This document shows positions 260 through 6,988 of a DNA stretch of 44,111 bases, in pieces. The DNA is taken from the IMG/VR virus record IMGVR_UViG_3300034990_000013, positions 1-44,111 of that record. One strand, given 5' to 3'. Position numbers and translations under genes: made by a program. This DNA comes from a virus. Lineage: Duplodnaviria > Caudoviricetes. Numbering within the stretch: the stretch's first letter is position 1; each line of letters starts with the position of its first letter. The notes beneath the pieces are model-generated. The model ran no database searches. It was not told the DNA's origin and saw only the letters and a program-made list of their open reading frames with translations.

Positions 260-1044
260 ACAGATACATCAAATTTAATGAATGGATGATGTTTATAATT
301 ACAAAGCGTTATATCTTCGAATTTCATAACTAAAACAGATTTATTTTTTAGAAAAACTCTTGGTAAAGGATATGGTTTTCTATCCAATTGTTTTTTTAAA
401 CCATCGACATGGTTTAAATATATATGCGCATCGCCAATAGTGTGTATGAATTCACCAGGAAAAAGGTTACACTCCATAGCGAACATTTTCAAGAGCAAAG
501 CATAACTAGCGATATTGAAAGGTACTCCAAGAGCGATATCAGCGCTTCTTTGATACATATGTAGATCTAAATAGTCGTCTCTGACATAAAATTGAAACAT
601 CATATGGCATGGTGGAAGTGACATTTCCTCAATTTCAGCAACGTTCCAAGCACTGACAATAATTCTACGTGAATCTGGGGTATTTTTTATCATATCCAAA
701 GCGTTTTTTATTTGGTCAATATGATAATTTTTATAATGATACCAGTTGCGCCATTGGAAGCCGTATACAGGCCCTAAATACCCTTCTTCATCGGCCCAGG
801 CATCCCAGATAGGTGTATGCTGAGTTAGATTGTCGTGTATATTTGTTGAACCAGATAGCATCCAAAGCAATTCCCTGACAACCGCATCAAATAAAACTTT
901 TTTTGTGGTGACAAGCGGGAAGCCGTCTCGTAGATTATACCGGGATTGTGTCCCAAAAACAGAGATTGTTCCGGTTCCGGTTCTATCGGTTCTTTTTTCA
1001 CCGTTTCTTAAAACGTGTTCAACCAAGCTAAGATACTGTTTCAT
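256..1044 (-). CDS. thyA: thymidylate synthase
   Basis: [26 protein letters not shown] and GDAHIYLNH motifs; start taken at MKQYL. Confidence 0.98.
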
Positions 1045-2023
1045 CTTTTTTCCTTTCATCACAAATTTTTAATAAAATTTCTTTATATTTTTTCCAAAAA
1101 TTTAAAGCCCATATATCCATTGATTCGATTTTATCATCGGAAAAATTTTTCCAATCTTCAAAAGAATGTGATTCGCACCCTATTTCCATATGCTCGTCAA
1201 AAATAAAAACTACCCAAGTTAAACCTGTAATTTTTATTGGTGTTTTATTAATAATAAAATCGTTTCTTTTAGTTTTATAAAAAACAGTTTTATAAAAAAC
1301 AGCTCTGGAAAGGTCAGCTCTGGAAAGGTTAGCTCCGGAAAGGTTAGCTCTGGAAAGGTCAGCTCTGGAAAGGTTAGCTCCGGAAAGGTCAGCTCCGAAA
1401 AGGTCAGCTTCGGAAAGGTCAGCTCTGGAAAGGTTAGCTCTGGAAAGGTCAGCTCTGGAAAGGTTAGCTCCGGAAAGGTTAGCTCTGGAAAGGTCAGCTC
1501 TGGAAAGGTTAGCTCCGGAAAGGTCAGCTCCGGAAAGGTTAGCTCCGGAAAGGTCAGCTCTGGAAAGGTTAGCTCTGGAAAGATTAGCTCCGGAAAGGTC
1601 AGCTCTGGAAAGGTTAGCTCCGAAAAGGTTAGCTCCGGAAAGGTCAGCTCCGGAAAGGTCAGCTCCGAAAAGGTTAGCTTCGGAAAGGTTAGCTCCGGAA
1701 AGGTCAGCTCTGGAAAGGTTAGCTCCGGAAAGGTTAGCTCTGGAAAGGTCAGCTCTGGAAAGGTTAGCTCCGGAAAGGTCAGCTCCGGAAAGGTTAGCTC
1801 CGGAAAGGTCAGCTCCGAAAAGGTTAGCTTCGGAAAGGTTAGCTCCGGAAAGGTCAGCTCCGAAAAGGTTAGCTTCGGAAAGGTTAGCTCCGGAAAGGTC
1901 AGCTCCGAAAAGGTTAGCTCCGAAAAGGTTAGCTTTGGAAAGGTTAACTCTTTTTCCTTTTTTTTCACCTTTTAACCATTTCTTATGTTTTTCTAAAATT
2001 TCATTCAATTGTTCTTTATTCAT
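1028..2023 (-). CDS. pentapeptide-repeat protein with C-terminal IGC...W domain
   Basis: about 43 A(D/N)L(S/F)(G/R/E) repeats; start at MNKEQL after AAAGGTGA. Confidence 0.92.
1301..1945. repeat. 15-bp tandem repeat encoding the pentapeptide units
   Basis: agct(c/t)(t/c)g(g/a)aaaggt(c/t) repeated about 43 times. Confidence 0.95.
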
Positions 2024-5150: not shown

Positions 5151-5411
5151 TTATTTTTGTATTTTATCTACGGCAGTAAAAATTTTAGGTGATAAAGAAA
5201 GTTTATTGTTTAAATTCTCAGATTTCATACTGATTAAAATATTTTTAATTTTCAATTGTTCACCCTTAGTTAAATATATTCCTAAAAGTAGTTTGTCAGA
5301 GTTTTCAACGATTTTTAAACAAACATAACCGATAAAATTAATATCACAAGATTTCATAATACTGCTTATTTCTGATATTGCATTATTAAGATTTGTGTTA
5401 AGTTTTTTCAT
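5151..5411 (-). CDS. hypothetical early protein
   Basis: GAGGG RBS after an ACAACAAAC leader. Confidence 0.75.
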   Translation of the reverse strand: MKKLNTNLNNAISEISSIMKSCDINFIGYVCLKIVENSDKLLLGIYLTKGEQLKIKNILISMKSENLNNKLSLSPKIFTAVDKIQK

Positions 5412-5429
5412 TTCACCCTCTGGTTTGTT

Positions 5430-5480
5430 GTCCGACCCCGCCCTAAGGCGGACGCACAGGGCTTAACGGACCCCTGTTTT
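5430..5480 (-). ncRNA. pistol ribozyme-like core lacking P1
   Basis: AAAACAGGG-GUCCG-UUAAG-CCCUGU-GCG-UCCGCC(UUAG)GGCGGG-GU-CGGAC reproduces the pistol order P2/UUAAG/pseudoknot strand/GCG/P3/G|U/P2. Confidence 0.6.
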
Positions 5481-5531
5481 GTTTTTACGGTTAGCTCTTT
5501 TCTTGCTGGTTTTACTGCCTTTAGTCTCTTT

Positions 5532-5594
5532 TTAGCAGTTGCACGGATTAAGCCTTTTACAACCACAATTTAAGCATTCATAATAAGTTTTCAT
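5532..5594 (-). CDS. 20-aa Cys-rich micropeptide (candidate)
   Basis: MKTYYECLNCGCKRLNPCNC with GGAAGG upstream. Confidence 0.4.
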   Translation of the reverse strand: MKTYYECLNCGCKRLNPCNC

Positions 5595-5790
5595 TCATTT
5601 CCTTCCAATCTATATCTTCCCCAGTCAAAACATTTGATAGAAAAATTGTTTCTCCACCGAGGCGATTATCATTAAACTCCCGAGCAAGCTTCTTAGCCTT
5701 TTCCAGTCCTTGAACGTCATGGATTGTCACGCCACCGAATTCATATGATACGACAATATGATACAGATTTTTGAATTCTTCAAAGGTCAT
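5578..5790 (-). CDS. hypothetical early protein
   Basis: start at MTFEEF after AGGAGG; the longer ORF call runs into structured RNA. Confidence 0.8.
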   Translation of the reverse strand: MTFEEFKNLYHIVVSYEFGGVTIHDVQGLEKAKKLAREFNDNRLGGETIFLSNVLTGEDIDWKEMNENLL

Positions 5791-5810
5791 TTCTTCCTCC
5801 TGTGTTGGTT

Positions 5811-5871
5811 GTCCTGTAAGCGCCGCAGATGGTGGTCTGGCCCCGGCTTTCACGGGGCAGGGCCTGGGGAC
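5811..5871 (-). ncRNA. twister-sister ribozyme-like RNA (three-way junction type)
   Basis: GUCC-CCA-GGCCC-UGCCCC-GUGAAAGC-CGGGGC-CAGA(CCACCA)UCUG-CGGCGCU-UACA-GGAC; GC-rich island in AT-rich intergenic DNA; all stems pair. Confidence 0.75.
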
Positions 5872-6182
5872 TATTTATAAAGCTTTCTCAGTGCTGTGAT
5901 GTTCGATTTTTTTTCGCCGCGATGCACTGAAAAAGATTTGTACACGTTCCGGCATGATTCGCGGTAATGAAAATGGACTTCTAAATCACCTTTTTTTCCG
6001 ACAACTGAATCACCCTCCCGAGTGACTTCAAATTCGAGCGAAGTAAGAAAATCATCAACCTCATTTTGTCGACGATTTTCATTCCAACGGCGGCCGCTGG
6101 CATTACTTTGAGGGCTCCAAAAATAAGTGTTCGCTGTTAAAATTTCGGGTTCTGTGATTTGATTTGTTGTCTGTGTTGTCAT
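5871..6182 (-). CDS. hypothetical early protein
   Basis: start at MTTQTT after AGGAGG and a (CAA)n leader. Confidence 0.85.
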   Translation of the reverse strand: MTTQTTNQITEPEILTANTYFWSPQSNASGRRWNENRRQNEVDDFLTSLEFEVTREGDSVVGKKGDLEVHFHYRESCRNVYKSFSVHRGEKKSNITALRKLYK

Positions 6183-6465: not shown

Positions 6466-6495
6466 ATTATATCACCAATAGATATACAATTTCAA
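6466..6495 (-). promoter_or_regulatory. sigma70-type early promoter
   Basis: TTGAAA-N18-TATAAT, extended -10 TGA. Confidence 0.85.
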
Positions 6496-6527: not shown

Positions 6528-6988
6528 TTTTGTCTTGTTAGTCGATAAGTAACAAGACAAAACCGGTTTTCTGTAAGCTATTATAAAATATAACGTTGTA
6601 AATATAGATTGAAAATATTGGGTATAGTAACAAGACAGTAACAAGACAAGCGTTTTTTCTGTAAGATTTTATAAAATAACAAGTTACGTGTTTTTCTGTC
6701 TTGTTGTCTTGTTACTTTTTTATATTCTTATATATAAATAAAATATGTACATAAAAAGTTTATGTAAAAAGTGTGATCTTTTATACGCGCTCACGTGTAG
6801 AGTAGGTGGAAGTAACAAGACAACAAGACAAAAAAAACATCAAGTTTATGGAAAATATTAACTTATAAAGAATTTTGCTGTCTTGTTACTGTCTTGTTAC
6901 TTTTTTATGTAAATTTAGATTTAAATATAAGATTATATAAAATAATGTTTTATAAATATAGGAGAAAAAAAAGTTTGTCTTGTTACTT
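6528..6988. repeat. symmetric array of AACAAGACA repeats; candidate replication origin or packaging site
   Basis: 11 copies in both orientations forming nested inverted repeats around about 6764 in a non-coding AT-rich gap. Confidence 0.8.

Follow-up and report, generated by a model that had tools for sequence, protein, structure and literature searches.

The minus strand of a tailed-phage genome carries, between two small open reading frames, a pistol-type ribozyme core that lacks the P1 stem, and the question that this locus raises is whether the element is a natural compact form of the ribozyme, and if so whether it can cleave, or whether it is the scar of a deletion. The window analysed is the whole 44-kb virus record (44,111 nucleotides), which has genes for terminase, connector, primase, polymerase, helicase and thymidylate synthase, the last adjoined by a long pentapeptide-repeat protein gene (1028-2023, minus strand); the element sits in a cluster of small minus-strand ORFs without a known family. 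Phages among the matches listed reach at most 38% identity in the DNA polymerase, no phage relatives were found via the terminase among the viral contigs searched, and short blastn searches against cultured phages gave only partial, chance-level matches. The reading preferred here, to which we give a probability of roughly three in four, is that the element is one copy of a conserved P1-less pistol fold, which by analogy with canonical pistols would cleave itself at G5436|U5435, splitting a polycistronic early message.

Read 5' to 3' on the minus strand (5477-5430), the 48-nt element begins with ACAGGG (5477-5472), the 5' strand of the pseudoknot helix, which forms the P1 loop in canonical pistols and here has no enclosing stem. 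Fused directly to it is the 5' strand of P2, GUCCG (5471-5467), the first position of which is a likely hinge. There follow the UUAAG junction (5466-5462), equivalent to pistol U29-G33 in the Rfam alignment; the pseudoknot 3' strand CCCUGU (5461-5456), with a terminal U where canonical pistols have A; GCG (5455-5453), aligned by Rfam with G40 (the general base), C41 and G42, the roles being those given in the available text of PMC6154101; a 6-bp P3 hairpin with a closing U-G pair and a UUAG loop (5452-5437); the predicted cleavage site G5436|U5435 in the 2-nt P3-P2 junction (5436-5435), placed by analogy with the available account of Harris 2015; and the 3' strand of P2, CGGAC (5434-5430), assigned from the sequence and from family covariation. 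All six pseudoknot pairs are Watson-Crick and P2 has 5 bp. A preliminary description of this DNA had claimed just such a layout of P2, UUAAG, GCG, a U-G-closed P3 and G|U, together with a perfect partner, ACAGGG, directly 5' of P2, a missing P1, and a predicted cut 24 nt ahead of the ATG at 5411, and in each of these respects it agrees with the sequence. No P1 is possible, because ACAGGG abuts P2 and leaves no room for an enclosing stem, and no 5-bp Watson-Crick complement that could substitute for it was found when the 83 nt upstream were compared with the 40 nt downstream. The P1-P2 linker of the compact form is 0-1 nt long, and the conserved AAA that forms an A-minor strut is absent. By eye, CCCUGU could also pair over 5 of 6 positions with the downstream Shine-Dalgarno (SD) sequence.

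The match to the Rfam Pistol model (RF02679), at 5470-5431, has E = 0.0046 in a 1.2-kb search and 0.17 over the whole window. The assignment to pistol in the preliminary description stood for the core, in that model positions 24-68 of 68 are aligned (1-23 are unmatched) and A/G32, G33, G40, C41 and G42 are all present, and fell short in score, at 29.1 bits against a gathering threshold of 34.5. The element is thus a pistol variant rather than a canonical member, lacking P1 and the AAA linker and scoring below the Rfam threshold. It is distinctly G+C-rich (69% versus 36% for the genome), and single-sequence folding with ViennaRNA, which does not extend to pseudoknots, is not significant (z = -1.32), the two nested sub-structures having energies of -19.6 and -15.6 kcal/mol. 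That the element stands above chance follows from family covariation, not from single-sequence folding.

No further copies were found within the window, and those in other sequences were gathered from public collections with patterns placing the pseudoknot partner just before P2, the matches then being filtered by a descriptor of P2, the junction and P3. Since UUARG, GCG and the inner pseudoknot pairs were set by the patterns, and P2 and P3 were demanded by the filter, none of these is independent; the conservation of the UUAAG junction and the family-wide invariance of the core nucleotides are forced by the search and circular as evidence. Compact cores with the full 6-bp helix were present at 19 of 86 viral loci and, in a scan of 36 of 64 parts, at 47 of 122 metagenome loci. 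A further pattern scan gave compact cores at 3 of 83 loci, one covering 10 of 64 parts gave 2 compact and 3 canonical among 121, and one for a U-A/A-U second pseudoknot pair gave none in 48 loci. A relaxed scan for junctions other than UUARG, over 6 of 64 parts, returned two known members in 120 loci among the matches listed. Prokaryote genomes gave a full compact core in just 1 of 27 pattern matches (L491); it lies (L677 1112-1172) on a 4.9-kb contig labelled Bathyarchaeia, ahead of a DUF932 gene among phage-like genes, and the contig may be a binned virus.

The search of metagenomes for other P1-less copies with covariation, which the preliminary description had proposed, thus yielded dozens, and each of the three helices shows double-sided changes. 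The alignment comprises 58 copies with 5-nt spacing; 6-nt-spaced copies were left out, as were L411, which matches another family, and L287 and the second L281 copy, which have an imperfect pseudoknot. Pairing extends to 98.2% of its 812 cells, where shuffles give 77.1% and slid controls 29-58%, and double-sided changes occur at 11 of 14 pairs (4 of 6 in the pseudoknot helix, 5 of 5 in P2 and 2 of 3 counted in P3). The pseudoknot helix is 99.7% paired. The outermost pair of P2 is open in 14 of the 58 copies and its inner four are paired in all 58, partly a filter effect, as is the 100% pairing of the first three pairs of P3, the length of which varies. There are 11 pseudoknot and 26 P2 sequence pairs in the alignment; one pseudoknot sequence is common to 42 of the 58 copies, and so the independent events are fewer than the sequences.

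An independent control is provided by the outer three pseudoknot pairs, which were free of the pattern: these pair in 16 of 16 viral matches with P2, P3 and GU versus 5 of 47 without, and in 44 of 45 versus 10 of 68 in the metagenomes. When nothing 3' of GCGU was required, P2 and P3 were present in 17 of 20 matches with the full helix. All 17 cores from scans that left this position free have a U immediately 5' of the P2 partner, and G precedes this scissile U in the displayed core sequences. An A follows P2 in 46 of 58 copies, and no covariation between the flanks was found in the family. The compact form ranges from 47 to 73 nt, the window copy having 48. It is virtually certain that the element is a real, conserved RNA.

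The compact copies are also set apart from canonical pistols by their architecture. In a scan allowing 4-34 nt between the pseudoknot partner and UUARG, the spacing of 36 distinct matches was bimodal, with 18 at 5-6 nt and 13 at 13-19 nt; a further 5 fell at 25-32 nt, and spacings of 4 and 7-12 nt did not occur. Eleven of the 13 canonical-spaced matches were submitted to Rfam and all 11 align with the full model (1-68), whereas compact copies align with positions 23/24-68 only, some others among them reaching 35-36 bits with positions 23-68 alone. The pseudoknot helix ends in A in 14 of 14 canonical copies (of 15, L155 having dropped out) but in 0 of 58 compact ones, which have U, C or G there. 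In the canonical controls a G pairing with the first C after UUARG leads into the P1 3' strand and then into the linker, which has AAA in 12 of 14. P2 is 4-6 bp in 17 of 17 compact copies versus 3 bp in 8 of 9 canonical ones, a tendency only, since other scans gave canonical copies with 4-5 bp. One canonical-type pistol (L513 167-239, minus strand) has P1, a 4-nt linker without AAA and a 5-6-bp P2, and is a possible intermediate architecture.

The copies in other sequences have a common genomic setting, following a stop codon and preceding a ribosome-binding site. In 50 of 63 members, compared with 5 of 112 core-negative matches, a stop codon closing at least 40 open codons lies between -1 and +10 nt relative to the first base of the element, and an SD-led start is present within 50 nt downstream in 42 of 56, compared with 12 of 108. 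The seemingly conserved UAG/UA upstream of the element is therefore the stop codon itself. Six matches, one truncated and the other five complete, lie within 5.5 kb of a 69-kb virus record (G001), and on several short metagenome contigs a copy recurs about every 300 nt; the element is single in the window and in 3 of 4 other virus records searched. Within the G001 array there is decay (L674 2363-2410 and 3361-3423), one copy being without P3 and the 3' half and another having a mismatched pseudoknot.

The window copy is atypical of the family with respect to its upstream side. The nearest upstream ORF is a putative 20-codon, cysteine-rich frame with four cysteines and its own SD-like site (5532-5594, minus strand), which overlaps the end of the 5790-5578 ORF, has its stop 54 nt before the element, and may encode a very small metal-binding peptide or be a remnant; the longer ORF ends 100 nt before the element. 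A 52-codon lysine-rich GTG ORF without an SD (5408-5566, minus strand), which runs through the ribozyme and ends in an ATGA overlap at 5411, is probably spurious. Downstream, an A/C-rich leader with an SD-like GAGGG (5412-5429, minus strand), almost unstructured in the predicted 3' product (MFE -2.0 kcal/mol over 56 nt), precedes an 86-aa ORF (5151-5411, minus strand) with no PHROG or Pfam match. The atypical context of the window copy and the decayed copies in G001 are points against the preferred reading.

A second ribozyme class is present 330 nt upstream, where a twister-sister ribozyme of the three-way junction form (5806-5874, minus strand; RF02681, 38 bits, above the gathering threshold of 34) begins at the stop codon of the ORF 6182-5871; three-way and four-way forms are compared in the available text of PMC5660989. 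Its cut is predicted, by analogy, at 5818|5817, which would leave 27 nt ahead of the ATG at 5790, and it shares the stop-to-SD layout with the pistol-type element. Self-cleaving ribozymes cluster near phage genes and near one another in the account available from Harris 2015 (PMC4604425), so that the neighbouring twister-sister favours the ribozyme reading. A sigma70-like promoter found by consensus scan (6466-6495, minus strand; 11 of 12 positions, extended TG), with no terminator-like site between 6466 and 5151 in such a scan, likely drives a transcript through both ribozymes. Four near-identical minus-strand promoters of this sigma70-like, extended-TG type (6495, 5138, 4799 and 4461) each head a small-gene module, and a fifth similar one was seen by eye near 2770. 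The AT-rich gap between divergent gene blocks at 6530-6985 has, by eye, about ten direct and inverted TAACAAGACA-like copies, a cluster that looks origin- or operator-like.

A related contig (L675) with 87% DNA identity to window positions 6077-5870 bears the same compact element, with G-U replacing A-U, at another junction. In its positions 1-620 the ORF that precedes the twister-sister in the window is present but extended, without a twister-sister match, and is followed by the compact pistol and then by a fragment of the gene at 4739-4539 of the window. Comparison of L675 with the window indicates that ribozyme cassettes appear to have been shuffled between junctions.

How might a pistol cleave without P1? 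In the structures (PMC11300833, as far as available) the pseudoknot helix of canonical pistols is stacked between P1 and P3, with P2 'adjacent and parallel', and the same source has a metal-bound water as the acid; G33-C41 closes the loop that forms the pseudoknot helix in the available text of PMC6795133, and the roles of G40 as the base, of G33-C41 and of purine 32 are those of PMC6154101, as available. The chemistry of the compact form would be as in the canonical one, with G40 as general base, a Mg-bound water as acid and the G33-C41 pair, and its products would carry a 2',3'-cyclic phosphate and a 5'-OH. The canonical chain would leave the far end of the pseudoknot helix, run out along P1, return in the minor groove via AAA and enter P2; in the compact form a 0-1-nt crossover to the neighbouring helix may replace this P1/A-minor strut excursion. 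Crossovers of 0-1 nt between side-by-side helices occur in four-way junctions. The crossover geometry would then set the length of P2 at 5-6 nt, roughly half a turn of helix, a model that would account for the looseness of the outermost P2 pair (14/58 open) as well as for the spacing of 5-6 nt. Self-cleavage at the predicted site, for which the argument is one of analogy with canonical pistols, is considered probable.

A role of the element in splitting cistrons is somewhat favoured. Its upstream product would end in a hairpin with a cyclic phosphate, its downstream product would have a short unstructured 5'-OH leader with its own SD, and the cut may uncouple neighbouring early genes in stability or translation. 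In copies that begin at a stop codon, as the window copy does not, a terminating ribosome might, speculatively, cover the first strands of the element and so gate cleavage. For the family as a whole, a reasonably likely description is that of a pistol subtype of 47-48 nt at minimum, cleaving efficiently without P1 via a helix-to-helix crossover, and acting as a phage stop-codon-to-SD cassette, often arrayed, which would cut early operons into single-gene messages and possibly be gated by terminating ribosomes.

The strongest challenge to self-cleavage comes from work on canonical pistols. Disruption of P1 led to substantial loss of activity in the available text of Harris 2015, and in that of PMC6101554 SHAPE identifies P1-L1 and the pseudoknot as the folding nucleus and the AAA linker as highly conserved; neither P1-L1 nor AAA is present in the element. 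It can be inferred that the same base pairs would also accommodate an inactive fold, in which P2 stacks end to end with the pseudoknot helix. The element may accordingly be a pistol-derived pseudoknot at gene junctions which does not cleave, or does so very slowly, and serves as an mRNA stabiliser, a ribosome barrier or a protein-binding site: a coaxial H-type pseudoknot fits every covarying pair, and the core letters, being forced by the searches, do not speak against it. We regard this as unlikely, as the U of the scissile step is present in all 17 cores from scans not requiring it, preceded by G in the displayed sequences; a cleavage site requires just such a fixed unpaired junction, flanked here by a P2 and a P3 that are free to vary; and the neighbouring twister-sister has the same stop-to-SD layout.

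It may alternatively be that cleavage occurs only with a stand-in for P1, i.e. a second copy forming a dimer, a protein, or the A-rich 3' tail docked on the pseudoknot helix. The near-identical copies in arrays and the A that commonly follows P2 (46/58) would suit such help, and dimer-cleaving short hammerheads are a precedent, going by the title of a reference in PMC5737381. Against it, the copy is single in the window and in 3 of the 4 other virus records searched, A-rich leaders are expected before any SD, and the flanks do not covary, so that this possibility seems decidedly improbable.

Least tenable is the proposal that the element is a recent scar, now non-functional, of a canonical pistol that was lost here by slippage between two CAGG copies, since, although one canonical pistol (L526) does have CAGG both in its P1 loop and at the linker end and such a deletion is conceivable, the compact form is on dozens of contigs with compensation among 11 pseudoknot and 26 P2 sequences, intermediate spacings were not found, the helix-end base differs systematically (A in 14/14 canonical, 0/58 compact), and L675 shares the element, G-U for A-U, at another junction, which together exclude a fresh deletion in this genome. 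A single ACAGG is present in 5380-5700. The two origins offered in the preliminary description have fared differently, the compact pseudoknot variant being supported by the covarying family with its fixed spacing and position, and the deletion of P1 from this copy by slippage between two ACAGG copies finding no support, given the dozens of contigs and 11 pseudoknot sequences. An ancient deletion could still be the origin of the whole compact family.

Compared with known systems, the preferred P1-less pistol fold is closest to the pistol RF02679 as presented in the available text of Harris 2015 (PMC4604425), with which it shares P2, P3, the 6-bp pseudoknot helix, UUARG, GCG, the 2-nt G|U junction and a phage intergenic site; structures of pistols are described in PMC6154101, PMC6795133 and PMC6101554, each as available. 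It differs in that the pseudoknot strand is joined straight to P2, without P1 or the AAA linker, in that the last pseudoknot base is U, C or G rather than A, and in that the window copy is below the Rfam threshold. The pseudoknot-containing hammerhead (PMC11300833, as available) is connected overall in the same way as pistol, a 6-bp pseudoknot taking the place of helix II, but has a helix IV with an A-minor triplex, equivalent to P1, and a 7-nt CUGAUGA loop, neither of which is in the element. Identity with that hammerhead was considered and rejected, the junction being UUAAG, helix IV being absent and no hammerhead Rfam match being obtained at E up to 10. A conceptual precedent is provided by the type-SGC non-circularly permuted hammerheads in the available parts of Eckert et al. 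2023 (PMC10085705), in which a stem I strand is linked directly to a stem II strand and which cleave; they differ in having a hammerhead core, a linker of about 3 nt and an extra helix.

No description of a P1-less pistol was found in the literature searched, subscription papers being largely outside its scope. None is present in the available portions of Eckert 2023 (PMC10085705, with one supplement), Weinberg 2017, PMC6765202, two 2026 preprints and PMC13067846; the word 'pistol' is absent from the main text of Fremin 2023, where the motif could sit unnamed in three supplements.

The published definition of pistol includes P1, which is reportedly very important for activity; if a natural form is active without it, the minimal fold would have to be revised, and structural studies and engineering would gain a ribozyme of 47-48 nt. 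The Rfam threshold misses most compact copies, and hence pistol-type RNAs in phages are undercounted. The processing of polycistronic messages by self-cleaving ribozymes is only suggested in the available text of a review (PMC6765202); the placement of the compact form between stop codon and SD, with up to five or six copies per operon, makes it a clean system in which to study ribozyme function in phages and bacteria.
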